A stretch of DNA of 64,000 nt from Ginglymostoma cirratum (taxonomy: Eukaryota), in NCBI GenBank assembly GCA_024137785.1, contig JAHRHZ010000022.1, positions 23,699,434 to 23,763,433 of the forward strand, given 5' to 3'. Of the stretch, positions 1 to 54,571 are shown piece by piece. Under the pieces are notes generated by a model. That model was not told where the DNA came from and searched no databases. It saw only the letters and a program-made list of their open reading frames with translations. Made by a program: the position numbers and the translations under genes. The number at the start of each line of letters is the position of its first letter. Positions within the stretch are counted from its first letter, which is position 1.

Positions 1-479
1 CCTGACCAACATTCCACCCTTAATTAATGGCAACGATTGTTTCCTAGTCTGTGTAAAAATGGGAGTTGAACTAGATATCACTTGCACATTGGCTGCAGTG
101 TGTAAAATAGCCACTTCTTTTGCTCATAAGCCTGTAATTATTATTTCAATATATATGCACTATCTTAAACATGTTTCAAAATCATTTGTTGTGTGCAATA
201 CATTTAGACATTTCAGAGATGCAAGCAAAATGCTCAGTCATTCCGTTTCCTGTAAAAATGTAATTATATTTACTGTTGAAGGAAGAGTGAGATAAATACT
301 TGAAAAAATTTGCAGATCTCTGTGGAAAGGAGAGAGGAATGGAATCAACTAGACAACTGCTTCTGGGAACTAGTGCATATACAGTAGGCTGAATGGTCTC
401 CTTCCATATTGTATGTACTATGTTTCTGTTCTGCATGAACTTGACAAAATCTCTTTTCGATAACTATTTTCTGCACATC

Positions 480-1164: not shown

Positions 1165-1690
1165 AGAGAAAGAACTGACGTTATTTTCACAACCTCTGGA
1201 ATTTGTAAAATGCTTCATGGCCAATAGAGTGCTATTGTGTACCCTGTGTTGTAATATCAGAAACAAGTAGTCAATTTGCGCAGAGCAAGGTCCCATAAAT
1301 GACAACAAAATAGTTTTCCAGATAATCAGCTTTTTAGTGATGATGTTTGTGTTTTTACATTAGATGCGATGCTATGCTGTCCTTTGAAATATTGCCTTGG
1401 GATCTTTTAATGTTTACTTGAGAGGGGAGGTGGAACGTCAGTTTAAAGTATCATATGCAAATCAGCAACGCCCAGGCACTCCCTCAGGACTAGGTGAATG
1501 ATGATGACGGGTCTAGGCCCGAAACGTCAAGTTTTCCTGCTCCTATGATGCTGCTTGACCTGCTGTGTTCATCCAGCCCCACGCTTGTTATCTCGGATTC
1601 TCCTGCATCTGCAGTACCTTTTATCTCCCTCAGGACTGCACTGTATGCTCAGGTTTCTGGAATGTGACTGGAATTCACAACATTGACTCG
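1165..1690 (-). mobile_element. Deu-domain SINE (SacSINE1/AmnSINE1-like), degenerate, split by a Penelope-derived insertion
   Basis: Reverse-complement Deu-domain motifs caatttgcgcagagcaaggtcccataaa, cagataatcagctttttagtgatg and gcactccctcaggactgcactg. Confidence 0.65.
1492..1627 (+). mobile_element. Penelope-like 3' end (family A), 5'-truncated at the hammerhead core
   Basis: Near-identical to 3862-3955 plus the 33-nt tail; ctccctcaggact duplicated at 1479-1491 and 1625-1637. Confidence 0.85.
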
Positions 1691-1959
1691 TGGACAACTG
1701 ACAATAATGACAATTGCAGTTGCTGTGCCTTGTTGTATGACTTTATGACTGGGATCAATGTGCTTAGTATGATCCTTCCTGATCAGTGAGTCTGAGTCTC
1801 ACACAGGGATGTGCATTCACCCCATGAGCCACCAGTTTTTAAGCCTGTTTTCTCACACATTCCGTCTATAATTTATCCATTAATAGATTGCCTTCCAGAT
1901 GAAGAGGAGAAAGCCCATGTGAGATGCTGTACTTAGACTTCCAAATGAGCCTTCCTCCC

Positions 1960-2085
1960 GAAAGACTGTGACTGAGAGCAGTGATTATACTTCAGAAGAA
2001 AATATTCCATTGGCTGCAAATGCTTTGGGACATTCTGAGATTGTGACAGAAGCTGGATAAGTGGAAGTCCGTTCTTTCTTTTCAG
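1960..2085 (+). mobile_element. Deu-SINE/L2-type 3' tail fragment
   Basis: cattggctgcaaatgctttgggacattctgagattgtgacagaag...ttctttc. Confidence 0.55.
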
Positions 2086-2357
2086 TCACCCAGAGAAAAG
2101 GGCAATGCCACAATGTGGCAGCAATGTAAGCAAGGTCCACAATACTATCCTTGGAATCAAAAGGATTTACTTATGGCAGATTTACCTTTGCCAGTGAAGC
2201 AGATTTCTCAGGGACACTGCCTAAGAAAAATGTTCTCCAACAAATGAGACAAGTATACCTAAGAGATAAAAGGTACTGCAGATGCTGGAGAATCTGAGAT
2301 AACAAGCATGGGGCTGGATGAACACAGCAGGTCAAGCAGCATCATAGGAGCAGGAAA

Positions 2358-2393
2358 ACTTGACGTTTCGGGCCTAAACCCTTCATCAGAAAT
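2358..2393 (-). ncRNA. Minimal type I hammerhead ribozyme
   Basis: Reverse complement reads AUUU-CUGAUGA-A-GGGU(UUAG)GCCC-GAAA-CGUC-AAGU. Confidence 0.75.
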
Positions 2394-2647
2394 GGGGGAG
2401 GGGAAGAGGGTTCTGAAATAAATAGGGAGAGAGGGGGGGAGGCGGATAGAGGNNNNNNNNNNNNNNNNNNNNNNNNNNNNNNNNNNNNNNNNNNNNNNNN
2501 NNNNNNNNNNNNNNNNNNNNNNNNNNNNNNNNNNNNNNNNNNNNNNNNNNNNGAGATAAAAGGTACTGCAGATGCTGGAGAATCCGAAATAACAAGCATG
2601 GGGCTGGATGAACACAGCAGGTCAAGCAGCATCATAGGAGCAGGAAA

Positions 2648-2683
2648 ACTTGACGTTTCGGGCCTAAACCCTTCATCAGAAAT
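2648..2683 (-). ncRNA. Minimal type I hammerhead ribozyme
   Basis: Identical motif to 2358-2393. Confidence 0.7.
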
Positions 2684-3285
2684 GGGGGAGGGGAAGAGGG
2701 TTCTGAAATAAATAGGGAGAGAGGGGGAGGTGGATAGAGGATGGATAGAGGAGAGGATAGGTGGAGAGGAGGCAGACAAGTCAAAGAGGCGGGGATGGAG
2801 CCAGTAAAGGTGAGTGTAGGTAGGGGGGTAGGGAGGAGATAGGTCAGTCCAGGGAGGACGGACAGGTCAATGGGGCGGGATGANNNNNNNNNNNNNNNNN
2901 NNNNNNNNNNNNNNNNNNNNNNNNNNNNNNNNNNNNNNNNNNNNNNNNNNNNNNNNNNNNNNNNNNNNNNNNNNNNNNNNNNNNNNNNNNNNNNNNNNNN
3001 NNNNNNNNNNNNNNNNNNNNNNNNNNNNNNNNNNNNNNNNNNNNNNNNNNNNNNNNNNNNNNNNNNNNNNNNNNNNNNNNNNNNNNNNNNNNNNNNNNNN
3101 NNNNNNNNNNNNNNNNNNNNNNNNNNNNNNNNNNNNNNNNNNNNNNNNNNNNNNNNNNNNNNNNNNNNNNNNNNNNNNNNNNNNNNNNNNNNNNNNNNNN
3201 NNNNNNNNNNNNNNNNNNNNNNNNNNNNNNNNNNNNNNNNNNNNNNNNNNNNNNNNNNNNNNNNNNNNNNNNNNNNNNNNNNNGT

Positions 3286-3606
3286 TGTGGCTTCCTCTAC
3301 ATCGGGGAAACCAAGCGGAGGCTTGGGGACCGCTTTGCAGAACACCTGCGCTCAGTTCGCAACAAACAACTGCACCTCCCAGTTGCGAACCATTTCAACT
3401 CCCCCTCCCATTCCTCAGATGACATGTCCATCCTTGGCCTCCTACAATGCCACAGTGATGCCACCCGAAGGCTGCAGGAACAGCAAATCATATTCAGCCT
3501 GGGAACCCTGCAGCCCAATGGCATCAATGCGGATTTCACAAACTTCAAAATCTCCCCTCCCCCAACCGCATCCCAAAACCAGCCCAGCTCATCTCCACCT
3601 CCCTAA
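3286..3606 (+). CDS. C-terminal GIY-YIG endonuclease domain of a Penelope-like element (5' part lost in N gap)
   Basis: Open frame CGFLYIGETKRRLGDRFAEH...ANHFN...LQEQQIIFSLGTLQPNGIN...; YIGET, Arg, Glu and Asn motifs plus His ligands of the PLE CCHH motif. Confidence 0.85.
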   Translation, partial: CGFLYIGETKRRLGDRFAEHLRSVRNKQLHLPVANHFNSPSHSSDDMSILGLLQCHSDATRRLQEQQIIFSLGTLQPNGINADFTNFKISPPPTASQNQPSSSPPP

Positions 3607-3857
3607 CCTGTTTCTCCTCTCACCTCAAGCCACACCCCCATCTCCTATCTACTAACATCATCCCGCCCCCTTGACCTGTCCGTCCTCCCTGGACTGACCT
3701 ATTTCCTCCCTACCCCCCTACCTACACTCACCTTTACTGGCTCCATCCCCGCCTCTTCGACTTGTCTGCCTCCTCTCCACCTATCCTCTCCTCTATCCAT
3801 CCTCTATCCACCTCCCCTTCTCTCCCTATTTATTTCAGAACCCTCTTCCCCTCCCCC

Positions 3858-3893
3858 ATTTCTGATGAAGGGTTTAGGCCCGAAACGTCAAGT
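3858..3893 (+). ncRNA. Minimal type I hammerhead ribozyme
   Basis: CTGATGA 3862-3868, stem II GGGT/GCCC 3870-3881, GAAA 3882-3885, GTC with predicted cleavage after 3889, stem I ATTT/AAGT. Confidence 0.8.
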
Positions 3894-4182
3894 TTTCCTG
3901 CTCCTGTGATGCTGCTTGACCTGCTGTGTTCATCCAGCCCCATGCTTGTTATCTCAGACAAGTATACCTATCTGCTTTTTCAGAAAGCAGTGTGCATGTT
4001 TATGGGTGTCTGTGTGTATATGACAGATGCATGTTTGTGTATGATGCATATGTGTGTATGTCCACATGTGTGAATGCACAAGATTGTGTATGTGAGTGTG
4101 CAAATGTGTACACATTTGTATGCGAGTGTTTTTGTGTGCATATGAGTGTATTTGCACATGTGCATGTTTGTATTCATATGCA

Positions 4183-4363
4183 GAGCTCGCAGGAACTGCA
4201 GATGCTGGAGAATCTGAGATAACAAGGTATAGAGCTGGATGAACACAGCAGGCCAAGCAGCACCAGAGGAGCAGGAAGGCTGACGTTTCAGACCTGGACA
4301 TTCTGAAGAAGGGTCTAGGCCCGAAACGTCAGCCTTCTTGCTCCTCTGATGCTGCTTGGCCTC
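4183..4363. mobile_element. Mini fold-back Penelope-derived element (family A variant)
   Basis: Minus arm about 4183-4298, plus arm about 4301-4362; perfect 15-bp TSD ttgtattcatatgca at 4168-4182 and 4364-4378. Confidence 0.85.
4303..4330 (+). ncRNA. Hammerhead ribozyme core
   Basis: CTGAAGA-A-GGGT(CTAG)GCCC-GAAA-CGTC; stem I weak. Confidence 0.6.
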
Positions 4364-5254
4364 TTGTATTCATATGCATGTCTGTTTATGTATGTGTGCA
4401 CACGTGTGCGTGTATGTGTGTGTGCTTGCATTTGGCTGCATGTATGTCTATATGTTGGCACGTATGCATGTACATTTTGTGAATTCTTGCACATTTATGT
4501 CTGCGTATATAAGTGAGCATATTTTTCTATTTGTGTACAATTCATATGAATGAACACATGCTTGTATGTGTATATGTGTGGATGTATGCATGAACACTTG
4601 GGTGGGTATGTGTCCACATATGTGCATGTTCATTTGAGTGTGAGCATGCATGTGTGTGTATAACTGTTTGTGAGTGTGAATGCCTGTGTGTGTGAATGCC
4701 TGTGTCTGTAAGAGTTAGTATATACATAGAGGGGATATAGAGCTGGGAATTTCAGACACACAGAAGAACACAGCTGATAAAACAACCACATTAAATGGAA
4801 ACAATAACAGTTTCATTTGATGCCACTGTGATTTGGGACAGATTTCAAGTAATTTGTATAGATAAGCTGCCATTATCAACACAGCTATAAATAACGGTGA
4901 CTACAGAATCCAGGGTCAGAAAATCCCAAAATCAGCTAGAACTGGATTGTAATGATATCCGGTTTCTGATGTCGACCTGCTTGTCCTTATTACCAGCAGG
5001 AATGGTGCCAATGAGAAGATTAGACGTGCTGGCCCTCCTACTCTCACATTAACCCAGAGGCCAGTGCTTCTGTCTACTGCCACTATCTTTCATTACTTTG
5101 ACTTTATCCTCAAATTACCATCCCAGTTGCAGTGAAGCAGCTACTTCTTGCTGACTTGCCATTCTACTTGTCCCAGCAGCACTCCTGTACCTCAAGGTCT
5201 AACCTGGAAGGTGAGTGTTATAGCCCTCACAATAAGCAAAGAAACTTTCTTTCA

Positions 5255-5415
5255 GTTCAACATCTGCGATCCTCACCTGGTGTGGCCTACATGTGACTCC
5301 AAACACACAGCAATGCAGTCGACACTTAACTGCTCTCAGAAATTGCCCAGCTAGCAAGAGAGAGGGCAAGAAATGGTGGCCTTGCCTGTGATACCCACAT
5401 CTCATAAAATCCTAA
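5255..5415 (+). mobile_element. 3' half of a tRNA-derived SINE (same family as 6538-7065)
   Basis: atctgcgatcctcacctggtgtggcctacatgtgactcc...ggccttgcctgtgatacccacatc. Confidence 0.6.
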
Positions 5416-5659
5416 AGAATGTAATTTCATTAGCTGTGTGGCAAAGTTCTATGTAAATCCATGGAATGTAACACCTGGAAAGTGTCATGGAAATCTCAAA
5501 CAGAAAGATTTAAAAAGAAGAGATGAGAGGCTGACTCTCCTCTTCATCTCCCCTCACAAGCAGCAGAAAGCTATCTCCTGGGCATTATTTTCCAAACAGC
5601 AGGCATCTTTGTATTTTACCCTTCCAGGAACAAACCAAAGCAGGCTCAAAAGTCTTCCA

Positions 5660-6345
5660 CAAAGGATTCTGAAGGGGCTTGACAGGGTAAATATTAAGAG
5701 GATGTTTCCCCTCATGGGAAAGTATAGGACCAGAGGCATAGATCTGGAGTGGCACGGTGGCTCGGTGGTTAGCACTGCCCCCTCACAGTGCCAGGGACCC
5801 AGGTTTGATCCCACCCTTGGGTGACTGTCTGTGTGGAGTTTGCACACTCTCCCCATGTCTGTGTGGGTTTCCTCCAGGTACTCCGGTTTCCTCCCACAGT
5901 CCAAAAATGTGCAAGTTAGGTGGATTGGCCATGCTAAATTGCCTGTAGTGTTCAGGGATGTGTATTTTAGGGGGATGGGTCTGGGTGGGATGCTCCAAAG
6001 GTCAGTGTGGACTTGTTGGGCCAAAGGGCCTGTTTCCACACTGCAGGGATTCGATGGATTTAGAATAAAGGGGAGCCAATTTAAGACTGAGACAAGGAGG
6101 AATTTCTTGTCTCAGAGGGATGCGAACCTTTACAATTTCTTGCTGCGAGAGCTGTTGGGGCAGTGTCCTTGTGTATATTTAAGGCTGATATGGATAGATA
6201 GACTCTTGATCAGTAGGGGAATCAAGGGTTATGAGGAAAAGGATGTGAGGATTGTTGGATCAGCTATGATACTTTTGAATGGTAGAGTAGGCACAGGGGG
6301 CTGAATGGCCTACTAATGTTCCTGTTTCTTAATATCTTATGGTCT
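5660..6345 (+). mobile_element. CR1-type LINE 3' fragment interrupted by HE1 SINE
   Basis: Encodes ILKGLDRVNIKRMFPLMG and RIKGSQFKTETRRNFLSQR; CR1 3' UTR gggctgaatggcctact...tcttatg. Confidence 0.85.
5749..6052 (+). mobile_element. HE1-type V-SINE (tRNA-derived)
   Basis: Pol III A box tggctcggtgg 5758-5768, B box ggtttgatccc 5802-5812, V-domain tgtgtggagtttgcac...ggtttcctccaggtactccggtttcctcccacagtccaaa, CR1-like tail. Confidence 0.9.
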
Positions 6346-6537
6346 GGACTTGTCATTTTCAGAATTTTGTTCAACCTGCATATATTCTTTGCTATCCATG
6401 GTATATTTGTTATACTGCTTGTCTTATGTCTGCCTGAATTGTGATTGAGTGTGCATGTGTTTAGCGCTTGAAGGGGTTTAGTTCAAACTGAATAAATTAG
6501 GAATCATTTTTTGCTTTACATGTTAAACTTGAACAAG

Positions 6538-7065
6538 AGGCAATGGTCTCGTGGTATTATTGCTGGACAGTTAATCCAAAGACCCAGGTAATGTTCTGGG
6601 GACAAAAACAGAAGTTGCTGGAAAAGCTCAGCACTTCTGAGGAAGGGTCACCTGATCCGCAATGTTAACTCTGATTTTTCTTTCACAGATGCCGCCAGAC
6701 CTGCTGAGCTTTTCCAGCAACTTCTGTTTTTGTTCCTGAATTACAGCTTCCACAGTTCTTTTGGTTTTTATTAATGTTCTCGGGACCTGGTTTCAAATCC
6801 TGGCACGGCAGATGGTGGAATTTGGATTCAACAAAAATCCGGAATTAAGGTTCTAATGGTGACTATGAAATACTTACTGGGGAATAGCCCAGCTGCTTTA
6901 TTAATGTTCTTTAGGGAAGGAAATCTGCCATCCTTACTTGTTCTGGCCTTTATGTGACTCCTGAGCACAATAATATGGTTTACTCTTAACTGTTCTTGGG
7001 CAATTAGGGGTGGGCAATAAATGCTGCCAAGCCAGGAACACCTTCATCCTGCGAATGAATAACAA
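6538..7065 (+). mobile_element. tRNA-derived SINE with LINE-derived tail, split by a Penelope insertion
   Basis: A-box-like tggtctcgtgg, B-box-like ggtttcaaatcc, core ggaaggaaatctgccatccttac, tail gggcaattaggggtgggcaataaatgctg...gaatgaataa. Confidence 0.75.
6604..6771. mobile_element. Mini fold-back Penelope-derived element (family B)
   Basis: 32-bp perfect inverted repeat 6602-6633 / 6702-6733; degenerate hammerhead CTGAGGA-A-GGGTCA(CC)TGATCC-GCAA; 15-bp TSD taatgttct(g/c)gggac at 6589-6603 and 6772-6786. Confidence 0.8.
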
Positions 7066-7100
7066 CAAATAAGTTAGTTTTAGAATTCGTGAATTGTTTT

Positions 7101-7684: not shown

Positions 7685-8249
7685 CATCATGAATTGAGTG
7701 AAGCTGCATCTATTGGCATGTCTAACCTTTAATTATTATGAGGCAAGATTTCCATCTCTCACTAGGAACGCAACTGGCCTCATATTGTTGGCAGCCAATC
7801 AGAGGTTAGTAATACTGTAATACTGGCAGTGCCACCAGCAGTGGTGGTCGCCATTGGTACTGCATCTGGACAAAGGAGGTAAAAAGGTAAAAACACCATA
7901 GTCTTATTAGACGATAGGGTTAGAGAGAGACTGATGGTGGGGAGGCATTCAGTGATGGCCTCAGACCTCCCATGACGTCTGGAAAGCCTCAGCAAAGGAG
8001 GTAGGCATGTTGGACCAGTTAGGAGATTGATGTGGAGGCACAAAACGAAGACGAGCCTCCAACTGGCACCGGAAGGAGGCACCCACTAGATTTCACAGGG
8101 TGGTATCCCCCAGGGTCAAACCTGCCAGGCTGCATGTTGGATACAGGCCTCTTCTGCTGCCTGTGTGACTGAGCAATAGCAGATTGTGGGCCATAAGCGG
8201 GCTATAATTGTCCATTTGAACACAAATCAGAATGATGTATTTGCCCACA

Positions 8250-25210: not shown

Positions 25211-25214
25211 ATTC

Positions 25215-27838: not shown

Positions 27839-27946
27839 AGGGTAGTAAGAACTGCCGATGCTGGAATCAGAGAGAACACAGTGTGGAGCTGGAGGAACAC
27901 AGCAGGCCAGGCAGCATCGGAGGAGCAGGAAAGTTGATGTTCTGGG
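27839..27946 (-). mobile_element. Penelope-derived 3' end (family A variant)
   Basis: agtaagaactgccgatgctggaatcagagagaacac...gatgttctggg; stops in the hammerhead. Confidence 0.75.
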
Positions 27947-28889
27947 ACTGTTGTGGTGGGGTTAGGAGCCCTGAGGGAGCGGAACGTGTGTTGGGGAGCC
28001 CTGTGGGAGGAACTGACATGCCTGTGGAAACCGGGACTATTGAGCAGGTGGGCGTTGTGTACCTGTGGGAGTGCTACCATAAAGCAGAAAACAGAGTGCA
28101 TGCAAAATCTGAGGATCAAAAATACAAGTCAAACAGTGTCATGATGGCAGATAATCTGAGACACGGGACAACTATCTCAAATGCAGGACAGTTGCACTTC
28201 CTGCCTGAAGATCACTGATTAAAATTTCTGGTCAGAACAGGGTCAGATCTGGGGTTTGAAAGGGGCCTGACAAGTTCAGAAACTCTAGCTGATCAAACTT
28301 TCCCTAACAACCACAGCCAACAGGAAAATCTAAGCCATACCCTAATGTCTACTCTTTAGGTTGGCAGAATATAAATAAAATGTGGCTTGGGGGACTAGGG
28401 AAGAAAACCATCTTGATATTAGCATTAAATTAAAAGAAAATGAGGCTATATTACAGTCAGGTTCTTTCTTAAAAATAGCAAATCTAAAACAAAGTATGGG
28501 GTTCCTTTAAGTGCCAAAGAATCCAATTACCAGTTATTCCATTCTTCAGGTTATTAACCTCCATTTTAGCTACTAACTACTAAATTACCCCAATTGAAAA
28601 CAACTAATATTATATTGAACCCAGCTGAAAGCAACAGAATCAACCATCAATAATGCAGATTTCCCACATGCGGTTTGAAAGGAACACATTAACTCTCCAA
28701 TATCAGTTAATTAAGAAGTAAAGTGGCTGTGAATGTCTCTCAATCACTTCACACAAAAGAATAGGTTATGCTGTGTGAAAGCAGGCACACACTATCAAAT
28801 GAAAGCTGCCACAATACAGCAACATTAGGTCTGGAATAGTAGATGCTGACAGCAAGGGTTCCATTGAGCTTCCACAGATGATGTGATAA

Positions 28890-29110: not shown

Positions 29111-29247
29111 GGCGTCTCTCCAGGTTGATCAAAAGCTGTACAGGAGGAATGGTAGATTTCGGGAGCATTAAAGGGCGAGTCTGAGATTTGTTTTGAAATT
29201 TGATTAAGATCCTGAACCACCACATCATCAAACAGTATGACCTAAAG

Positions 29248-29394
29248 GAGATAACAAGCATGGGGCTGAATGAACACAGCAGGTCAAGCAGCATCATAGG
29301 AGCAGGAAAACTTGACGTTTCGGGCCTAAACCCTTCATCAGAAATGGGGGAGGGGAAGAGGGTTCTGAAATAAATAGGGAGAGAGGGGGAGGCG
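29248..29394 (-). mobile_element. Penelope-derived 3' end (family A, young, tail-less)
   Basis: Nearly identical to 2295-2445; gacctaaaggaga duplicated at 29239-29251 and 29395-29407. Confidence 0.88.
29310..29345 (-). ncRNA. Minimal type I hammerhead ribozyme
   Basis: Identical to the 3858-3893 motif on the reverse strand. Confidence 0.75.
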
Positions 29395-29525
29395 GACCTA
29401 AAGGAGAGTCATATTGGGCCTGAAACATTAGCTAGTTTCTGTCTGCCTAGATGCTGCCAGACGTGCTAAGTTTCCCCAGCATTCTGTTTTTGTTCATATT
29501 TACAACTTGGCAGTATTTTCATTTT
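29395..29525 (+). mobile_element. Older Penelope-derived 3' end (family B/C)
   Basis: ctaaaggagagtcatattgggcctgaaacatta...agatgctgccagacgtgctaagtttccccagcattc. Confidence 0.65.
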
Positions 29526-29755
29526 GTTAGGAGGAAATTGGACTGAAACTGGTCGGGAGCACCTGCGAAGCTGCTTCAGTGCTGTGCTAATGCCAACAAT
29601 CCCCCCTGCAGTGAGTGAGGGCTTATCCTCAAAGTGTAAGACTCAGCAGACCGCACTCTTCTCTAAGTTAGTCATTATGGGTTCAAGTCCAACTACAGAT
29701 ACTTGATTATATAATGCAGACAGATACGTAGTACAAAGGGAGCGTCGTACTGTCA

Positions 29756-30349
29756 GAGATAACAATGTGTAGAGCTGGTTGAACACAGCAGGCCAAGCAG
29801 CATCAGAGGAGCAGGAAAGCTGACGTTTCGGGTCGAGACCCTTCTTCAGAAATGGGGGAGNNNNNNNNNNNNNNNNNNNNNNNNNNNNNNNNNNNNNNNN
29901 NNNNNNNNNNNNNNNNNNNNNNNNNNNNNNNNNNNNNNNNNNNNNNNNNNNNNNNNNNNNNNNNNNNNNNNNNNNNNNNNNNNNNNNNNNNNNNNNNNNN
30001 NNNNNNNNNNNNNNNNNNNNNNNNNNNNNNNNNNNNNNNNNNNNNNNNNNNNNNNNNNNNNNNNNNNNNNNNNNNNNNNNNNNNNNNNNNNNNNNNNNNN
30101 NNNNNNNNNNNNNNNNNNNNNNNNNNNNNNNNNNNNNNNNNNNNNNNNNNNNNNNNNNNNNNNNNNNNNNNNNNNNNNNNNNNNNNNNNNNNNNNNNNNN
30201 NNNNNNNNNNNNNNNNNNNNNNNNNNNNNNNNNNNNNNNNNNNNNNNNNNNNNNNNNNNNCTCCTCTGATGCTACTTGGCCTGCTGTGTTCATCCAGCTC
30301 TACACCTTGTTATCTCAGATACTCCAGCATCGGCAGTTCCTACTATCTC
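29756..30349. mobile_element. Fold-back Penelope-derived element
   Basis: Minus arm 29756-29860, 400-N gap, plus arm 30261-30349; TSD gtc(g/a)tactgtca at 29744-29755 and 30351-30362, extended by gagat microhomology. Confidence 0.85.
29822..29849 (-). ncRNA. Hammerhead ribozyme core
   Basis: Reverse complement reads CUGAAGA-A-GGGU(CUCG)ACCC-GAAA-CGUC. Confidence 0.65.
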
Positions 30350-30757
30350 TGTCATACTGTCAGAGATGCCTTTTTTTTGGAGGAGGTGTTGATCCATGGT
30401 CTGATTTGGCCGGTCAGGTGTACATCAGAGACCTCATGGTACAACTTTGAGGATAGAAGCGTAGAAAGTAGAAGCGGGAGTGTGCCATTTGGCTCTTTGA
30501 GACTGTGCCGCCATTTAATATGATCATTATTAATCATCCAACTCAGTGCTCAGTACCTGATCGGATTTCTCCCTCGAGTTCTTATCAATATTTATCCCCC
30601 AGACAACATTGATGTAAAAAAATTATCTGATCATTACCAAAATTGCCTTGCTGTGGGACCTTGCGGTGTTGCACATATTCCAACAGTGACTCCACCTCAA
30701 AGTACTGAGTTGGCTGTAAAGTACTTTGGGAAGTTCTGTAATCATGTAAGCAGTTGA

Positions 30758-30935: not shown

Positions 30936-31254
30936 CAATGAATGAAAGTCCATTTCTTTTATTATTAAACTGCCACCAAATCACCTGTGTCTCCAAGTTA
31001 ATGAAGTACAAGGAGGGGACTAAATTAACATGGAGTTGGTGAAGAAAATAATGCACTCCAACCCCCCCACTATGCTGATCTCTTCCTTCTTTTATGCTTA
31101 CCTCACCAATTTAGTCTTTATGGAAAAGTCAAAGTTCCTAATTAAGGGAAAACCAATTCTTGGCATGAAACAGTTATGGTCAATAGTCTGTGCCTATCAG
31201 AAGAATGTAACCTTTTTGTTTTTGTATCAAAAATCTACCAAACACTAAGTGTCA

Positions 31255-31390
31255 TTCTGACAAAGGGTCACTGGACACAAAACATTTACTCTATTTCTCC
31301 CACCGCAGATGCTGCCAGACCTGCTGAATTTCTCCAGCAATTTTTGCCTCTGTTTCAGATTTCAAGGATCCATAATCCTTTGTTTTATTG
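31255..31390 (+). mobile_element. Penelope-derived 3' end (family B), begins at a decayed hammerhead
   Basis: ttctgacaaagggtcactggacacaaaacattta...cagatgctgccagacctgctgaatttctccagcaa. Confidence 0.7.
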
Positions 31391-31526: not shown

Positions 31527-33006
31527 CCTTCCTTAATGACTACCACCCAGTGGCCCTGACCTCCATAATCGTGAAATGCTTCGAGATGCTGGTCATGGCC
31601 CGCATCAACTCGAGCCTCCCAGCCTGCCTTGATTCCCTGCAATTTGTGTACCTATGTAACAGGTCCACAGCAGATGCCGTTTCCCCAGCCCCGCACTCAT
31701 CCCTGAAACAACAAGGACACCTATGTCAGATTCCTGCTCATCGACAACAGCTCTGCCTTCAACACCATAATCCCCTCTATATTAATCTCAAAACTCTGAG
31801 ACCTAGGTCTCGGCTCCACCCTCTGCAACTGGATCTTCAGTGTCCTGACCCATAGTCCGCAATCAGTGAAGATAGACAACGGCACCTCCTTCATGATAAC
31901 CCTCAATGCTGGTTTAGGCCCGAAACGTCAAGTTTTCCTGCTCCTATGATGCTGCTTGACCTGCTGTGTTCATCCAGCCCCATGCTTGTTATCTCGGATT
32001 CTCCAGCATCTGCAGTACCTTTTATCTCTGATACAATTTTCACCCCCAAGGATGTGTTCTCAGCCCCCTACTATATTCCCTGTGCAACTGCGACTATGTA
32101 GCCAAATTCTGAAAGACCATATCAATAAGTTTGCTGATGACATCACCGTTGTAGGCCGGATATCAAACAATGATGAGTCTGAATACAGAGAGGAGATAGA
32201 GGACTGGGTGTTGTGCTCAATGATAACTATCTTTCTCTCAATGTCTGTAAAACCAAAGAACTGATCATTGACTTCGGAAAGAAAGGAGGAGAACACACCC
32301 TCATTTACATCAATAGAGTGGAGGTGGAGAGGGTTTAGAGCGTCAAGTTCCGAGGAGTAATGATAATTGACAAACTGTCCTGAATCTTCCATGTAGCTGT
32401 AACGGTTAAGAAAGCACAATAATGTCTCTTCTTTCTCAGGCGGCTGAGGAAATTCAACATGTCCATAAGGAACCTCATCAACTTTTACAGATGCACCATA
32501 GAAAGCATACTGTCCAGGTGTATAGTGGCCTGGTACAGCAATTGCTCTGCCCAGGACTGTTAAGAAACTACAGAAGGTTGTGTGCACAGTCCAGATGATC
32601 ATGGAAACCAACCTTCCATCCAAGGACTCCATTTACACTTCTCATTGCTGCAGAAAGGCTGCTAACGTTGTCGAAGACCCCTCCCACCCCAGTAATATTC
32701 CCCTACAATCTCTTCCATCATGCAGAAGATATAGAAGCTTGAACACATGCACCATCAGGTTCAAGAACAGCTTCTTCCCCGCTGTTATTGACTGATGAAT
32801 GGACTCTCTAACTTGCAATAATGTTGATCTTGTTAATGTTGATCTTCCTTCGCACATCTCCTGTGCGGTGTAACCTGTACGCCACACTCTGTCTAAGCAC
32901 CCTATAATCTGTATGTCCTTGCTTACTATGATCTGGCTGTACTGCTCGCAAAACAAAGCTTTTCACTGTGCTAAGGTACATGTGACCACAATAAATCAAA
33001 TCAAAT
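31527..33006 (+). mobile_element. Rex1/Babar-like LINE RT and 3' end
   Basis: LNDYHPVALTSIIVKCFEMLV...LDSLQF...NRSTADAV; KFADDITVVGRISNNDES; RFKNSFFPAV; (aaatc)n tail. Confidence 0.85.
31911..32028 (+). mobile_element. Penelope-derived 3' end (family A) inserted in Rex1
   Basis: Starts inside hammerhead stem II (ggtttaggcccgaaacgtc) and ends at the outer tatctc; no clear TSD. Confidence 0.88.
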
Positions 33007-35968: not shown

Positions 35969-36391
35969 CTGAAACATCTCAAACAGCCCAGCTATACCAT
36001 TATATGTGCTCCATACAAGCCTCTCCCCACATGGCATCATCCAATCTGACCAATATCCTCATCCCTTTCTCCCTCAGACATCTTCCTCTGAAAAAATCAA
36101 TGTTATTTGCTTTGACTGTTCTGGGAGGATTTCTGGAATTACTATCCAGAGGCCAGCAGCTCCAGAACTCAGCAGTACTGTGACCGAGGACAGAACAATA
36201 CTCCAACACTCTCTCCCCACCACCCAGCTACCGCCCCACTGCCCACTGCCCACTGCCTTTCAGGAAGATTCTGGTCGATGTGACAGTCCAAGCCAAGTGA
36301 AAGGCAGGGGAAAGAAACATCTCATGATTTCATCAGAATCTAGTGAAAGGTCAGATAAGAATCAGACTAGGTACAACTGTGATCTTCCTCA

Positions 36392-36509
36392 CAGACACTG
36401 ATCCTAAAAAGTTAATTCTGACTTTTCTTCACAGATGCTGCCAGACCTGCTGAGCTTTTCCAGCAACTTTTGTTTTTGTTCTTGACTTACAGCATCTGCA
36501 GTTCCTTCG
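36392..36509 (+). mobile_element. Penelope-derived 3' end (family B)
   Basis: cagatgctgccagacctgctgagcttttccagcaac...cagcatctgcag; TSD gtgatcttc(c/t)tca at 36379-36391 and 36510-36522. Confidence 0.8.
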
Positions 36510-37354
36510 GTGATCTTCTTCATGTTTGTAAAGTCTGATACTCAGGCTCACACACAAGGAATAGCCATTTTAAGTTAGATTTCCTTTTTGACCTGAAGTG
36601 TAATGGATTGAAAAGCTGAAATGTAATGGAATTCAGATGTTGGGACAGCTTTTGGTAGAATCAGAAAATCACTCAGTCTGAAGTCTTATGGTTTAATGGC
36701 AATGTTAAACACCAGTATGGACAATTAAACATGATAGTTAAGATACACAATGAGATCCCAAAGAGCAACGGTGCCTATGAAGCCATAGCCCAGTAATATG
36801 CCGTACCTTCACAAGAGGGAGATAGAAAACCAGTGATCGTCATGACCTCTGATGACCCAAGGTTATGTCCCATGATTAGTATTACATCCAGGTTACCAGT
36901 GCGCTAATCACAAATAGCCTGCCCCATCTCATAGAAGACATGCAGTGTTATTATAAAGAAAAATATCACTTATCATTATAATGTGATTTAGGTGCCTCAA
37001 AACAGATGATGTGTGAATTTAATTTTGCAAAGATCTTTATGATGAAGACAGCTTTCGCTGTCAAACGATGCCACAGGGTTCTTAACTAAGTAGAGCGCAA
37101 GCCACTAATTAGGAATGTTAATACAACATTGCTGATAAATAGAAAATTAAAACTTCACCAAAAACACTAAACATATAATGCACACTTAGTGACTGTTTCT
37201 CGGCCCTGTGCTTAACTTGGCCATGAAACAGTGCAATAGCTTAATCCAGATCACCTGCTGTTACAACACAAGCATATAATTTGAGAAGCAAACAAAAGTG
37301 ATCATTCCAGATATTTGCGAGAAGTTAAAATTGCAATAGACAATACTGGAAAAG

Positions 37355-37990
37355 GAATAAAACAAAGAACTGCAGATGCTGGAGATCTGAAGCAAAAACA
37401 GAAATTGCTGGAGAAACTCAACAGGACTGGCAGCATCTCTGGACAGAAAACAGAGTTAACATTTCAGGCCCAGTGAAGTATTCAGCCAGTGAAAGTTTCA
37501 TGACGGCAGAGTCAAAACAGTGGTAATTGTTATGGTAAAGAAACTAAAGTTCAGGTGTGAATGGCTGGAATACAGGTGTGAATACAATGTGAAAAAAAAG
37601 GAAGAAATAAGACAAATTCAAACCAGCAGAAAGAGAAGCAGAGTCAGAGATTATGATCTAAACTTGGTTTAATTAATTCAACTTAAGCTTAATGTTGAAT
37701 CACAGAGTCACAGAATTGGTAAGGTGCAGAAGATGGCCATTCAGCCCATCATGCCTGCAATGTTCTATTTCCTAGGAACAATCTCCTGACATTTCCCCAA
37801 TATCTGCACAACATTTCCATCCAAAAACCCATCCAATGCCCTCTTGAATACCTCAGTCAAATCTCCACCACGCTTCCAGACAGTGCATTCCTGAGTCCAG
37901 AAGTCTGTTCAGTACCAATCTGATAGATAGGATACTGCTCCTCAAGCTCGTGTTTAAGCCTCACTGAAATGCTGTGACACAAACTGAAGC
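37355..37990 (-). mobile_element. Penelope-like element (family B) 3' end with decayed GIY-YIG end, interrupted by a CR1 tail (about 37700-37890)
   Basis: aacaaagaactgcagatgctggagatctgaagcaaaaacagaaattgctggagaaactc; gatactgctcctcaagctcgtgtt corresponds to an antisense RKLEEQ motif. Confidence 0.65.
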
Positions 37991-38445
37991 TCAGAGTCAC
38001 TCTCGAAGACATAGTTCCCTTGATTCCCTTGAGATGTTTGCAGTTATTCTCTTCACACTGAGACTAGATGAGATAGAAAATTAAATCCTGACCTGATCTT
38101 CAGGAGATGGACTGGTTGACTGAACCATTAATTGTTTAGCCTTTACAAGACTACAGTCCCACTATCCAGATCATAAACCCTAGTGGAAATGTTCCACTAT
38201 AGTGCATCATTCAGCAATGGGTAATATTCACAAGCCTGCCACCCTCAGTAAAACTGGGTTTCATGTGTAAACGTGTTGAATTGCCAACACCAAGTGCTCT
38301 AGTTACATACATAGAAGAGCAAATATTTGCATTTAATGCTGCCAATGCAGGATTTTGCATCTAGCAGTACTTCAGTTCATGTCCCCCATAATTGGTTATC
38401 TGTTAAACCATATTAGGCATCAAAGGCGGTTCAACTACAAGCTGT

Positions 38446-38540
38446 GATAACAAGGTGTAGAGCTGGATGAACACAGCAGGCCAAGCAGCATCAGAGGAGC
38501 AGGAAAGCTGACGTTTCGGGCCTAGACCCTTCTTCCAAAA
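38446..38540 (-). mobile_element. Penelope-derived 3' end (family A variant, tail-less)
   Basis: 15-bp TSD tcaact(a/g)caagctgt at 38431-38445 and 38541-38555; ends at the hammerhead core. Confidence 0.85.
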
Positions 38541-38554
38541 TCAACTGCAAGCTG

Positions 38555-38860
38555 TCCCTGAGTCAGAAGACGACGAGTTTATGTTGCATGCCATGCGAAG
38601 AATTGAGGATGATTCTCCACTGCAGTTCTGGCAGAGTGCTGTATTGTCAGAAGTACCATCTTTTGGGTGAGACATTAAATTGAGGTCTGTGTTCCATCTT
38701 AGGTGGCTATAAAAGATCCATTATTTCAAAGCAAAGCAAGGGAGTCTTCCCTGATGTCATGGCTTATATATATCCCTCAAGCAACGCTAGCAGAAAAACG
38801 TATCAGCTGGTTGCTGCTTATTTGTGTTGTGTGCAAATTAGCTGCCAATTTTCTTTATGA
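38555..38860 (+). mobile_element. Deu-domain SINE
   Basis: tgagacattaaattgaggtctg...aaaagatccattatttcaaag...tatccctcaagcaac...gtgcaaattagctgcc. Confidence 0.7.
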
Positions 38861-39629: not shown

Positions 39630-39930
39630 TGGTATTGTGGTTATATTACGGTGCGGTACTCAGACTAGTAATCTGGAGAATGTGAGTTCAGAATGTGCCC
39701 TAGTACATTAACAGTTTGAATTTAGTCTGAAATAAAAGAAATGTGGTATTAATAAAAGTGGCCATATGCCATCAAGACGACTGGCTGACTGATTATATTT
39801 TAGGAAATATGTGTGACTCCAGTCGTATACCAATGAAGAAGAGTCATATTGGACTTGAAGCGCTATCTCTGTCTCTTTCATCACAGATGCTGCCTGACTT
39901 GATGAGTTTCTCCAGCACTTTCTGTGTCTG
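39630..39930 (+). mobile_element. tRNA-derived SINE fragment with a nested Penelope 3' end (about 39832-39930)
   Basis: actcagactagtaatctggagaatgtgagttcag; tgaagaagagtcatattggacttgaagcgcta...cagatgctgcctgacttgatgagtttctccagcac. Confidence 0.55.
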
Positions 39931-40369
39931 CTCCACACCAATGGGACTGGCTCTCAAGTGTTCCTTGAATTTGCCATTCAGTAGTCCCTTAACTGCTTTC
40001 CTTAATCCAAGATAGTGGACAAACACCCAATTACAGTGTAATAAGTGCCAGCTTTGGGGGACAATCTTTTTTAAATGAGATTTGAATATTTTAACTTACA
40101 GGCGTATTATTTTTCACAGATCTGACCTGAGGTTCAAAGAGTGGCTCTGGGAAGGCCACAGGATGAAGTACTGAGTGGACTACATGGGGTTAATAGCTAT
40201 ATGCTAATAGCTAGACTGCGTCACCAGTGATGCCACATGGAACAAGGTTCTAGCAATGTCCTGCTCAGCCATACCTCTGTATGTAGTGTGAACACTTAAT
40301 AAATGTTCAATTGGTTTGCACTAGTATAGTGTCCAAACGTCATCTCTCAAAAGCATCCAGAGCCTGGTC

Positions 40370-40770
40370 ATGATATTTACACATTGAGGGAGTGCTGTAC
40401 TATCAGAGTCTATTTAGATGTTAAAGTGAAGTCTTATTTGCACCAGACACCAGGAGTGACTGGACTCAAAACATTGACGCTGCTTTCTTCCCGCCGATGT
40501 TGCTAGACTTGGTGAGTTTCTCCAGCAATTTCTGTTTTTATTTCATTTGCCCTGTCAGGCAAACAGGAAATATCACTCTGCACTTATCTACCACAAGGAA
40601 AGGAAGATCAGGGACTATTTATTCTTCAATCAGCATCAAGTGACTATATTACTGCTTCATGTTGGCTCTTGCTGTGCATGAATTGGTTTCTGTGCCATGT
40701 TTGTCTGTAAAACAAAGCAATGAATGGACTGCAAAGTATCTCGGAGCTTTGAATATAAAGGCAAGAGGTC
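40370..40770 (+). mobile_element. Deu-domain SINE with a nested Penelope 3' end (about 40452-40545)
   Basis: gagggagtgctgtactatcagag; ggagtgactggactcaaaacattg...gagtttctccagcaatttctg; cttgctgtgcatgaattgg. Confidence 0.55.
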
Positions 40771-43560: not shown

Positions 43561-44352
43561 TTTAGCAGACAGCAAACATGTACTGCCTCGTTTTGAGGTG
43601 AAGGCTTCAATTCAAGGACAGCTAATCTTTAACTCTCAGCATTTCTGATTGTTTCTCAGGTGTGTGTGTGTAACACAAAATCAGCATTGACTCTTTTCCA
43701 CTGGGTTAGCAACAGGGTCAGTGTCTTTTTGCTGCCCTGAAGCATGCCTTTTGTACAACACTTCAAGTGAGCCAGTCTTCTTAAACAGTTAAGACAATCA
43801 GATTGATCTTGTGTGCTTAATAAATTTTCCTCAATAGGGAAGAGCCTCTAATTGAGGTTGAGCATTATGTTTTAATAAACCACTACTTTCAGCCAAAGTG
43901 AGTTTATTCTCAGCTAGGACAGGCCAGTAACATATGAGGCCTGCTGCAACAAACGCATTTTTTTAACAAAATGTCCCCTTTTTCATTGGTGGAACCAGAT
44001 TCCAAAAAGTGCTCACATTTTTTTTTGCCTACATTCAAGCCAGAATCCTGGAGATCTACTTTGCTGGATAAATGCCTCATTTGCTCGATTCCTACAAGAT
44101 GAGGTTTTGGGGGAGACCCTCCTGCAGTGTGAATCTGCATTGAACCAGTTCAGACAAACCTCCACCTGTCCTCATCCCCACAGACTCAATAGTCATATGC
44201 TCGCTCCAAGTAAGAGTAAAAATGAGGTGCGCTTTTCTATCCAGAACTACATCATTAGTCAGTCATTACTACATATCATGAATTCCTTCTCGCACAGTCA
44301 GGACAAGAGGAAGACTGGAAGAGAAGCAGCTTCCAGTCAGCAACCTGCTTTT

Positions 44353-44465
44353 CAGCCCGAAACATTTACTTTCCTGCTCCTCAGATGCTGTCTGACCTGC
44401 TGTGCTTTTCCAACTCCATGTTTATTGACCCAAGCTTCCAGCGTCTGTAGTCCTTACTGTCTCCA
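44353..44465 (+). mobile_element. Penelope-derived 3' end (family A variant)
   Basis: Starts cagcccgaaacatt inside the hammerhead; 14-bp TSD agcaacctgctttt at 44339-44352 and 44466-44479. Confidence 0.8.
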
Positions 44466-45109
44466 AGCAACCTGCTTTTACCAGGAACCTTCATGAGGTC
44501 TTTCACTTGTAATTGACAACAACCATAAGGCCTCGTTTCTTCAAAGTGCCATTTTCCCACTTCAGATGGAGTCATCTCCCTACCACTAGGAGCTTTGTTG
44601 AAATGGAGACTTCTTCTTCCAATTGCTATCCTGGCCCATCCCTCCAGTCACCCTACACTAATCCTGATCTTTTCGAGAAATAAGACATAAAGATCTTGCT
44701 TTACGATAGTATCTTTCACAACAGCAGGACACCACAAAATACCTTAGAAGCAACGAAGTACATCCTGACCTTTAATCACTTTGAAATGTAGGGAGACATG
44801 GCAGCCAATTAGCATATAGCAGATTCCCATGGTGAGATTAAAAAGGCTAAGACTCTTTACTTTCTAAAGCAAGAGGTTGAGTGGTCAATTTATTGAGATT
44901 TTTACGATTAAGGAGGGTTTGGTAGGATAGATGTAGATAAGATGTCAACGAGAACTAATGGCCACAAGAAGGTAGGTATTAATAAATTCAATAGGGAATT
45001 CTGCAGTAACCTCTTGACCAGAGAGTGCTCAGATTGTAGAGCTCATTTCAGCTTAGAGTACAGCAAATGGCTTTGATGTGATTAAGGGGAAGTTAGTTAA
45101 GGGGGTCAT

Positions 45110-45554: not shown

Positions 45555-46570
45555 ACAAACTATTGCTGGAAACGGTCAGCAGGTCTGGCAGTATCTGTGG
45601 AGAGAGAAACAGAGTTACCATTTCAGAAATGGAAGAGTTGTGAAGACATGAGAAGGGGGAAGGGACGAACAAAAAGTAAGGTCTGTGAAAGGGTAGAGGG
45701 TAAGAGTTAAATAACAAAAGATTTCAGAATGTAAAAGCAGAGGAGTAATGGATATAGTAAAGAAACCAAAGGTTGTGTCCAGTTGAGGTGTGAATAGTAA
45801 CATAACTGCCATCTGAATGCAACACAGGAACAAAGGAATGACAAAAGAAACAGAGAGAGAACTTTTTTTTAAAAAAGACACAGATCAAAATAGAGGCAGG
45901 GGTTATGATCTAACCTTATTGATCTCCATTTTGAGTTCAGAAGATCATTGCGTGTTTAGGTGGAAGATGAGGTGCTGTTCCCCAAGTTTGTGCTGAGAAA
46001 GGTCAGAGTCAGGTGGAGAATTGAAATGACAAATCACTGGAAGCTCTGGGTCATGCTTTAGGCTGAATAGAGCTGTTCCACAAAGCAGCCACCCAGTAGT
46101 CGGTGTCACCAAAATGGGACAATTGTCGAATTGGCCACATTGTCAGCAGCCAATAGTAAAAGAAGCCTAAGTACAATATAGTGCCGCTTCATCTGGAAGA
46201 TGAGTTGAGGGCCTTGGACATTGAGAAGGCTGCAGATGAAACTGCAGTCATTGCATTTCCTGTACTTGCACGGAAAGGTGCTGTAAAGAAGGAAGGGATT
46301 ATAAGAAGTGGCTGAGCAATAGGGTGTCACAGAAGGAATGGTCCTTTTGGAAAACTGAAAGGGAACAGCAGAAAAGGATGTGTCTGGGGACTTCATGCTG
46401 GCACTGGCAAAAAAGGTGCTGGATGATCCTTGAATATACACCCTGGTGAAGTAGAAGATGAAGATAAGGGAAACTCACTATGATTCTGGGAGGGAGAGGA
46501 AAGGCTGAGATTAGAAGTGCATGACATTAATTGGACATGTTGGAAGTTGATGATGCTGAGTGGATATCCT
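45555..46570 (-). mobile_element. Neptune-type Penelope-like element remnant (Cys linker, GIY-YIG, 3' UTR)
   Basis: Antisense TFPCKYRKCNDC..VQGP and QHKLGEQHLIFHL; family B 3' end at 45555-45630. Confidence 0.7.
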
Positions 46571-48999: not shown

Positions 49000-50330
49000 A
49001 ATGGATGACTACAAAATGTCCATCCCTGAATTGGAAGGTGTGAGATCTCCTTATTGAGTTTAAGCTATTCAGACAACAAATGGAACTATAGCTGTCAAAA
49101 TCAAAACTGCTATTAGAAATGAAGGTTTCTGCAGACTGACTACATCAGGAGTGTCGACTGATTACTTCATAATGGTCTCCACCGGTTAATCACTTAAGAT
49201 TTAAGCTTGATCTTCACATGCCCTGTCTCCAATTTGTACTTCTTTTTTCAGACTACCAACCCCAGGAGTTGATAAAGCAGGAAATTCAGCAGGTGTGGCA
49301 GCATCTGTGAAATAGAAGCAGAGTTAATGTTTTAAGTCCACAGCAACCCAAAGTGAAATAGATCACTTCGTGAGCTGTAGCTGTGATAGTGAGATAAAAG
49401 CTGTGACTTTTCGGAAACAAAACTGGACAATAAAATCATTGAAATTTGTAATAGCTCCTACCCCTATCAAAGCATATTGAAAGGAACTTTCTAGACTAAA
49501 CCAAAGGTACGGCTTGGAAGTATTGCAATAAAGGTGTTGCAAGAATGAAGCGATCCTTTTGGGTAGAGAGAGTTTATAGCCTTTGTTTACAATGTTCACC
49601 ATAAGAACAATAACCAATTCACACAACCCTGGCAAGCCACACAGGGAGTGCAGCCTCATATGTACTACCTGAGTTTGTCAGGCTTCCTATGACATATGCA
49701 AGGCAAGTGGGACTGGGAATGCTGGAACACCAATGCTGGAGCTAGTACAGACGATTCAGTATTGTGACATGGCAGCTCCTACATTCCAGCAAACAAAGGA
49801 AGCATAGCAAATATCTCACACACCAGGTTCACTCAATGTCTTGCCAGGCTGCAAAGTTGGATGATGAGGGTAATCAGAACAATGACTGTATGGAATGCCA
49901 GCTCATGAACACACAATGTCTGAGAACTATTGATGTTGCACAAATTAAGGATGTCACCACTATTCATAATGTATTTCCACAAGAGCCTAGAAACTATACG
50001 CAGTGGACAAAATCAATCCAGGTGTAGGTGCTAATCTTCTTCCACTTCCCAGGCTGACAAGCTTGTACCTGCAGAAGTGGAAACTGATGAATCAACCAAT
50101 CACCACCAAGTCCACAGGCTACAATGGCTCAAAGATACCAGCTGTAGGATCCTTCATTCTTGAATGTTGCTGCAACAACTCACCATGGACATCTAAGATA
50201 TTCTGTGTGGTGGACAATGCAAGTCTAGTGATTACAGGCCTAGCAGCCAGCAGAGACCTGGCTTTGGTTAGCATTAATTGTCTCCACACAAAAATTGTGT
50301 GCAGATTGATTGCAGAAATCTTGCATTAAA
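49000..50330 (+). mobile_element. Ty3/Gypsy gag-protease remnant
   Basis: KINPGVGANLLP (decayed KIDTGAxANLLP), TGYNGSKIPAVG, FCVVD..VITGLAASRDLALV; Cys-rich knuckle-like segment near 49640-49720; small Penelope piece at 49265-49340. Confidence 0.55.
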
Positions 50331-53463: not shown

Positions 53464-54173
53464 TGCTTATAGCAGGACATACCTAATACCCACCACCAGG
53501 AGAAGAACTTCAAAAGAGACAGAAGGAAAGGAGGAGCTTATTGTGCAGACATGGCTTACCACTTTAAGAGGATTGCTGTTTTAAGAAGAGCTCAGCTAGA
53601 CAGTCAGCATCTGAAACCAGTTAAACAGACACCAGTGGCTCATGGAAGCTGTAACAACTTGGAAGCTGTACTCCAAGCTGAAAGACAGCTAGACCTGGAG
53701 TATAAAGTGCAGATAAGCCAGTGTAGGCTACAATCATACTTGGTAGAAGGCAGCAGATATTAGTCAGTGTTCAACTACAGATTAAACGGACAGTAGGGCC
53801 TCCTTTAGTAAGTAAATATCAAATGGAAAAGGGTAGAAAACTTGCCTAACAGTGCAAAACACACAGATTAAGAGAGTGAAAAAATAAATTGGGAGTACTT
53901 ACTGGTAAAATGAACATTGCTGCAGCTGTAAACTTTAAAAGACGGCAATAGATCTAATTCAGATCAAAGTCAGGGAAATCAGAAACAAATTTAAACATTT
54001 TAAATCCACTGCAAAATAAGATTAAAAGCAGAAAAGAATTCAGGAGCAAGCAAAAGTGATTTTAAGAAATCAGAACATACTTTAATGCTGGAAAGCACAT
54101 GAATTTGCCATTTTGTCAGGGAGAAAAGACATGATTCATCCCAAGAAGAAGACTGAAGGACCCAAATCTTCCA

Positions 54174-54326
54174 GAGATAGTAGGAACTGCAGATGCTGGA
54201 GAATCTGAGATAACAAGGTGTAGAGCTGGATGAACACAGCAGGCCAAGCAGCATCAGAGGAGCAGAAAGGCTGACGTTTCGGGCTGAGACCCAAGAAGGG
54301 TCAGCCTTCCTGCTCTACACCTTGTT
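54174..54326. mobile_element. Mini fold-back Penelope-derived element
   Basis: Minus arm 54174-54293 plus a short rearranged plus arm; perfect 15-bp TSD gacccaaatcttcca at 54159-54173 and 54327-54341. Confidence 0.87.
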
Positions 54327-54571
54327 GACCCAAATCTTCCATTTTGTTCAAACAGGCAGGAAACTTCCCAACAAGCCGCAAAAGGATGGGAATCCTCCAT
54401 TTTGATTCCTAAAACTGAAAAGATCATATTACTTCAGATAAAAGTATTTAAGAGAGTTAGCAATTCTTGAAAAAATTAATAAAACTTTTATTTTAAAAGA
54501 CTATTGCTATAGTACATAAACTTAAAACTCAAAACAATTCTAAAAATGCAAGTGTTTTGCAAAAATGTATT

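Follow-up and report, generated by a model that had tools for sequence, protein, structure and literature searches.

Fold-back insertions of Penelope-like elements bracketed by 13-15-bp target-site duplications in Ginglymostoma cirratum

The window, that is, the whole 64,000-nucleotide stretch of DNA that was analysed, contains 21 truncated loci of Penelope-like elements (PLEs), found by self-comparison and a sensitive search, and no full-length PLE copy. Five of these loci are head-to-head fold-backs with the element 3' ends pointing outward, and the remaining 16 are single-arm copies. In all five fold-backs the left part is an element 3' end on the minus strand and the right part one on the plus strand, a layout that the preliminary description of this DNA had proposed and that the self-comparison confirms for each of them. 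Most units are only 150-200 bp long and have no ORF. The loci fall into two related families, A (12 loci) and B (9 loci), which replaces the earlier picture of one family with about 18 copies in 64 kb; the copies at 6604 and 36392 belong to family B and are only 72-74% alike to A1 copies over ~76 nt. Family A comprises the young A1 loci (1492, 2262-3955, 29248 and 31911), the subgroup A2 (4183, 29756, 38446 and 54174) and older loci (17270, 20100, 27850 and 44353), and family B is found at 6604, 29400, 31255, 36392, 37400, 39870, 40480, 45600 and 49300. Positions within the element are counted from the first C of the hammerhead core. The fold-backs and their parts, including the target-site duplications (TSDs), are as follows.

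2247..2261, plus strand: left TSD of the large fold-back, 15 bp
2262..2452, minus strand: anchored left arm of the large fold-back, family A1, with tail, -61..+127; hammerhead core 2366-2389
2553..2883, minus strand: second left-arm copy of the large fold-back, between two N gaps, -204..+126, unanchored
3284..3955, plus strand: right arm of the large fold-back, with GIY-YIG C-terminus, 3' UTR/pLTR, hammerhead core 3862-3885 and tailless end at +93
3286..3606, plus strand: stop-free C-terminal end of the PLE ORF (106 codons), coding for the YIG half of the endonuclease and 92% identical to P0001
3956..3970, plus strand: right TSD of the large fold-back; the first 3 nt also match the element continuation
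4168..4378: A2 fold-back; tailed left arm 4183-4299 (minus), right arm 4300-4363 (plus, about -3..+61), 15-bp TSD
6589..6786: family-B fold-back; tailless 30-nt left arm 6604-6633, tailed right arm 6634-6771, 15-bp TSD with 1 mismatch
29748..30367: A2 fold-back; tailless left arm 29761-29860, 400-N gap, tailed right arm 30261-30354
54159..54341: A2 fold-back; tailed left arm 54174-54292, 34-nt right arm 54293-54326, 15-bp TSD

The arm junctions of the fold-backs at 2262-3955 and 29756-30349 fall inside 400-N gaps, so that only three arm junctions are readable; the other three fold-backs stand in unbroken sequence. The large fold-back has its left arm in two copies separated by a 100-N gap (2263-2452 and 2553-2740, 97.4% identical). 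The 331-nt piece at 2553-2883 begins at the element terminus and is identical to the right arm at 292 of 298 positions; it adjoins no unique flank, and is thus possibly an assembly duplicate. The 300-bp arms described earlier rest on this unanchored piece, the anchored left arm being 191 nt long. A further gap, of 129 N, is found at 53104-53232, and neither side of it shows a PLE arm.

The large right arm retains coding sequence. Positions 3286-3603 read without a stop as the YIG half of the GIY-YIG domain, in agreement with the uninterrupted C-terminus reported before (106 open codons). The window peptide, being half a domain, reaches E 0.0029 and 18.3 bits against Pfam GIY-YIG, under the 22.6 cut-off, which P0001 passes. 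Its best relatives are a whale-shark protein (P0001, 92% identical) and a zebra-shark protein (88% identical). The proposed Penelope-like origin is supported. Both relatives have RT sequence upstream (Pfam RVT_1 E 9e-5 for P0001), and further homologues are found among other shark, ray and invertebrate proteins, with no named reference PLE protein among the matches. These relatives make a shark origin of the window very likely. In the window the upstream part of the ORF, including the RT and linker positions, falls in an N gap. A CX2-5CxxC motif precedes the endonuclease (EN) in P0001 and in 111 of the 121 homologues with enough upstream sequence, and is degenerate in P0002. According to passages of PMC8557442, this linker marks Neptune and Nematis and is absent from Penelope/Poseidon. 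With the linker of the closest homologue taken as a proxy, the family would be of the Neptune/Nematis type, and the Penelope/Poseidon clade was ruled out by that same linker. Among public gene models, P0015, P0026, P0037, P0041 and P0120 contain PLE RT/EN sequence under host names (receptor-transporting protein 3-like, divergent kinase domain 1C, chitinase domain 1, XIAP) and are likely annotation chimeras.

Other repeats are also present in the window. A LINE-type RT remnant at 58306-60081 (plus strand) has an open frame of 591 codons (RVT_1 E 6e-32), a second at 47030-48880 (minus strand) is over 47030-48721 its inverted relative (75.6%), and a third fragment lies at 25013-25618 (plus strand). 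A pair of ~1-kb repeats (10626-11608 and 21464-22406, 81% alike, with more pieces at 54570-55053 and 59430-60020) is likely another LINE family.

The single-arm copies of both families, listed with their TSDs where these were found, are given below.

1479..1637, plus strand: A1 copy with tail, 13-bp TSD 1479-1491/1625-1637
29239..29407, minus strand: tailless A1 copy, 13-bp TSD, at the hammerhead of an older family-B copy
29408..29508, plus strand: decayed family-B copy into which the 29248 copy inserted
31911..32028, plus strand: A1 copy with tail, no TSD found
36379..36522, plus strand: family-B copy, 13-bp TSD with 1 mismatch
38431..38555, minus strand: tailless A2 copy reaching -3, 15-bp TSD with 1 mismatch
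44339..44479, plus strand: older family-A copy with tail, 14-bp TSD
17260..17372, minus strand: older family-A copy with tail; flanking repeat only 10 bp (within chance)
20034..20150, minus strand: older family-A copy with tail, no TSD
27843..27949, minus strand: older family-A copy with tail, no TSD
31248..31386, plus strand: decayed family-B copy, no TSD
37359..37475, minus strand: decayed family-B copy, no TSD
39834..39934, plus strand: decayed family-B copy, no TSD
40452..40542, plus strand: decayed family-B copy, no TSD
45562..45626, minus strand: decayed family-B fragment, no TSD
49280..49340, minus strand: decayed family-B fragment, no TSD

The sequence to the right of the TSD of the 29248 copy resembles the family-B copy at 39834. 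The 31911 copy lies inside a LINE-like remnant (31500-32632; the LINE family was judged by eye, with no Pfam match for 32063-32632) and has ~14 extra bases after its tail, and ten extra bases (1492-1501) separate the left TSD of the 1492 copy from its 5' end. A 21-nt element motif was found at 0 loci in the viral contigs searched; its one match in a metagenome contig (L001) shows similarity confined to the motif and was taken as chance.

The 3' ends of family A are found at two sites, about +89..94 and about +123..127, and the ~33-nt tail is one-sided. Exactly one arm carries it in 5/5 fold-backs (p about 0.025-0.03 if the arms chose their ends independently), while about 10 of the 16 single copies are tailed. 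In four of the five fold-backs the tailless arm terminates at the inner site, where tailless single copies also end (the 4183 arm ends at +61), and tailless arms show the same overlap with the target as tailless single copies. The 5' ends cluster at the front edge of the hammerhead, with 9 of the 11 resolved ends at -3..+16. None lies at the cleavage site (+28), and hammerhead cleavage was rejected as the cause of truncation.

The hammerhead itself is a prediction: the pLTR has a candidate minimal type I motif. The minimal core matches 10 times in the window against 3.05 expected (0/100 shuffles reach 10), an enrichment that supports the motif reported earlier, and 6 of the 10 matches are element copies. 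Helix II is 95% paired over 10 distinct copies, with one pair changed on both sides; the controls are modest (8/500 shuffles reach the score and 164/500 the pair count) and the copies are related. The GAA of the hammerhead is followed by the palindromic ACGT. Rfam gave no match at the gathering score, and the folded element ends, with z-scores between -0.9 and 0.9, show no stable structure. Parts of PMC4209133 describe the hammerhead motifs of PLE repeats as weak and dimer-dependent, and min-HHRs in fish Neptune elements. The two cores of a fold-back are located on opposite strands and would therefore not form that dimer.

In the three readable fold-backs the junctions can be compared letter by letter. 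At 4183 the arms differ at 5/50 positions, three of them at most 10 nt from the junction (p 0.04 given 3.7% divergence); RNA editing was dropped as a cause, the changes being of mixed kinds. In the case of 54174, the right arm (54293-54326) has two internal deletions and consists of pieces of about +3..12, +28..40 and +78..88, joined at short repeated words. One joint coincides with the hammerhead cleavage position (+28), which a repeated 3-nt word explains. At both of these loci each arm has sequence absent from its partner. The left arm of 6604, on the other hand, is 30/30 identical to the right arm and nested within it. All three junctions differ from one another, so that the fold-backs look like one-off products and not like a replicating unit, and the description of them as MITE-like elements is left unsupported.

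Every fold-back is bracketed by one TSD. The duplications 2247-2261/3956-3970, 4168-4182/4364-4378 and 54159-54173/54327-54341 are 15 bp long and exact, 6589-6603/6772-6786 is 15 bp with 1 mismatch, and 29748-29760/30355-30367 is 13 bp exact, or 17 bp with 1 mismatch. All five had been described (as 15, 15, 15, about 12-13 and 15 bp), and so had the 13-15-bp TSDs of five single-arm copies, all of which were found again: 1492 (13), 29248 (13), 36392 (13, 1 mismatch), 38446 (15, 1 mismatch) and 44353 (14). A TSD of 13-15 bp with at most one mismatch is present in 5/5 fold-backs and 5/16 single-arm copies, i.e. 10/21 loci, with element boundaries set by eye ahead of the TSD search. Random pairs reach 12 exact letters in 0/1500 cases and 13 with one mismatch in 3/1500 (0.2%); in the wider search, which gave the TSD of 44353, 0/400 random pairs reach 13. 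The other 11 loci, mostly older, show no flanking repeat of at least 13. Six of the nine testable 3' junctions show an overlap of 2-5 nt between TSD and element end (p 4e-6 to 2e-5). Six further junctions, at which the reference ended or extra bases intervened, were excluded; with these scored as none, the overlap is found in 6/15 (p 2e-4 to 7e-4). With the overlap bases counted as target the TSD lengths are 13-15 (sd 1.0), otherwise 8-15 (sd 2.6), and the empty site at 1492 includes the overlap bases. The TSDs are 57% A+T, equal to the window, and microsatellite targeting is absent at 9/10 TSD loci (judged by eye), 4183 lying in a TG-rich tract.

Contigs of 4 runs from four samples (of 13 runs with part of 3284-10500) were compared with the window over 1200-5800, a span that covers the three insertions at 1492, 2262-3955 and 4183. 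The flanks diverge by 3.7% (74/1992 in run X1), which places the contigs in a close relative. In 4/4 runs one contig passes from 2246 straight into 3956, so that precisely one TSD copy is left at this empty site of 2247-3955. The relative thus lacks both arms together with the other TSD copy, which supports the earlier claim of one integration event per fold-back. The position 1478 joins 1625 in 3/4 runs, the listed pieces of run X7 stopping short of the left flank. Between 4182 and 4435 there are 48 nt in 3/4 runs instead of the 252 of the window, so that the 4183 fold-back is absent from these runs; the X7 contigs break there. The empty-site check called for in the preliminary description finds 3/3 tested insertions absent; these either arose after the split or predate it as polymorphisms.

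Joints of fold-backs at other copies are found in read-derived contigs of all four runs, in more than 650 distinct joint rows, and the fold-backs are not an artefact at the family level. Among the 15 joint rows listed of the more than 650, there are 12 in which an arm terminates at -3..+1 relative to the hammerhead core, only 5 of which, at 2391-2392, are free of reference bias; the pile-up at 4301 is partly forced, as the reference copy starts there. The N gaps receive no depth from the relative's contigs, and none of the listed pieces crosses an arm junction of the window copy. The mirror-image repeats are real insertions of Penelope-like elements. That the arms inserted independently, or that the inversions are assembly errors, is very improbable: two junctions do fall in gaps and a left-arm segment is duplicated across one, but the empty sites keep one TSD copy, three fold-backs are unbroken, the joints recur in contigs of four runs, and independent insertion would need a second hit exactly at the 5' junction without its own TSD, five times. 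A non-autonomous MITE-like or retrozyme-like family copied whole from hairpin RNA or DNA masters also appears improbable, if somewhat less so. Such a replicating unit would agree with the recurrence of the joints 2392->3859 and 4262->4301 in 5 to 11 contigs per run of the relative; a stop hot spot, however, accounts for this recurrence, the three readable window junctions all differ, the joint rows are as diverse as stated above, and retrozyme-like tandem monomers are lacking.

We consider, with a probability of about 0.55, that the fold-backs are 5'-truncated insertions of two endonuclease-bearing families, each formed in one event in which both ends of a 13-15-base staggered cut were primed on element RNA. 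The element protein would cut both target strands 13-15 bases apart, and reverse transcription would likely start from both freed DNA ends. One cut end, primed at the outer start site, would give the arm with the tail, and the other, primed at the inner start site, the tailless arm; in many cases base pairing with the target over 2-5 nt would assist the priming. The cDNAs would stop mostly at the front edge of the hammerhead, perhaps the 5' end of the RNA; passages of PMC2377424 place the transcript start of the D. virilis Penelope inside the upstream pLTR. Joining of the two cDNAs head to head and fill-in would then produce the TSD, single-arm copies would be events with a lasting cDNA from one end only, and the products are likely dead on arrival. 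The priming of both cut ends, already proposed before, stands as the best reading, one to which the narrow TSD range, the one-sided tail, the target overlap, the two 3' end sites and the pile-up of ends at the hammerhead edge point. The arm-private sequence at 4183 and 54174 also argues for it. The evidence comes from 5 fold-backs, with 2 of 5 junctions in N gaps and 11/21 loci without TSD.

A more specific form of this reading is put forward tentatively, at less than even odds: a PLE dimer with a near-fixed 13-15-nt stagger, both RT domains of which would prime on one RNA at the two start sites, with 2-5 nt of pairing and run-off at the hammerhead edge. In parts of PMC11167929, the anole Poseidon protein cleaves and extends both strands in vitro, initiates at two sites that delimit the tail and is predicted to form a dimer, with hammerhead cleavage dispensable. 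Against priming of both ends on one RNA, the arm differences at 4183 fit two template RNAs or error-prone joining better. Two-end priming in general has further points against it: asymmetric deletion at the palindrome centre could mimic arm-private sequence, the right arm end of 4183 (+61) is not a start site, and initiation without target homology is reported, for another clade, in portions of PMC11167929.

The nested short arm of 6604, also counted against two-end priming, matches the prediction of a snap-back, in which one end would be primed on RNA and the cDNA would fold near the front edge of the hammerhead and copy itself, with endonuclease or repair resolving the product at the tail boundary. 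We regard this main rival of two-end priming as rather unlikely. It likewise predicts a single tail per fold-back, agrees with the 30/30 identity of the 6604 arms and with near-perfect palindromic joints at -3/-3 in 9, 5, 10 and 11 contigs of the four runs, and passages of PMC3846280 and PMC8557442 propose self-priming with EN-mediated resolution. Against it, the tailless arm extends beyond the tailed one in the 5' direction at 4183 (~12 nt) and 54174 (5 nt), the left arm of 54174 is intact where the right arm is deleted, and tailless arms share both end site and target overlap with tailless single copies.

The fold-back layout has already been described for PLEs and is not new, and the inverted pLTRs and hammerheads given as background in the preliminary description are in print (sections of PMC3846280, PMC8557442 and PMC4209133). 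Part of PMC3846280 gives as the typical Penelope structure an insert that adjoins an inverted pLTR, has a tail of 31 bp at one of the inverted ends and is flanked by a 9-bp TSD; text in PMC8557442 extends the layout to PLEs at large and notes assembly problems, and the curation guide PMC8969392 lists it. With the EN+ PLEs described in portions of these sources and of PMC2377424 (Pen2a_Av of Adineta vaga, PMC3846280; PLEs of PMC8557442; D. virilis Penelope, PMC2377424), the shark elements share the inverted, 5'-truncated head-to-head copy, the 30-40-nt tail on one end, the one TSD around the unit and the trouble in assembly. They differ in the TSD length (13-15 bp, compared with 8-10 bp in Adineta, from a part of PMC3846280), and in that the shark units are mostly 150-200 bp without ORF, with 5' ends clustered at the front edge of the hammerhead. 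The order of RT and C-terminal GIY-YIG, as seen in P0001, is shared with the Neptune/Nematis elements in the relevant text of PMC8557442, the linker being likewise seen in P0001 and falling in the N gap in the window. As far as sections of PMC11167929 describe it, Poseidon of Anolis carolinensis (PAc) likewise has its hammerhead close to the end of the element, a pair of RT start sites that delimit the tail and an insertion end not set by hammerhead cleavage (of the shark 5' ends, none is at +28), but it belongs to another clade and primes without homology at AT-rich targets, whereas in the shark 6/9 junctions overlap the target by 2-5 nt and the TSDs are 57% A+T. Non-LTR retrozymes, in a portion of 10.64898/2026.07.22.740005, are also non-coding, carry a type I hammerhead and derive from PLE pLTRs; they are tandem direct repeats, while the shark elements are inverted pairs or single stubs with TSDs, and sharks go unmentioned in the main text of that preprint. 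An assignment to retrozymes was rejected, as self-comparison shows dispersed and inverted copies, the sole adjacent direct pair straddling an N gap.

In L1 twin priming, both cut ends prime cDNA and an inversion inside one TSD results; the second primer anneals internally, which leaves non-overlapping inverted segments. The two arms of the shark fold-backs, by contrast, both copy the same terminal segment and form a palindrome. Searches of the openly accessible literature gave no paper that links twin priming to the inverted ends of PLEs and no description of this shark family. Passages of PMC8557442 state the origin of PLE tandem and inverted ends as unresolved, and in a section of PMC11167929 what follows first-strand synthesis is left without validation.

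For annotation, loci of this kind cause gaps in assemblies and may be taken for MITEs. For the biology of PLEs, young shark copies with empty sites place measurable bounds on integration (a 13-15-nt stagger, one tail, short target pairing and a stop at the hammerhead edge), and junction statistics together with empty sites make the model of two-ended priming testable. If the tentative reading with a dimer on one RNA is true, a single step would account for three features of PLEs, namely the inverted pLTR, the tail on one side and the TSD, and shark genomes would be a very large fossil record in which to test it.
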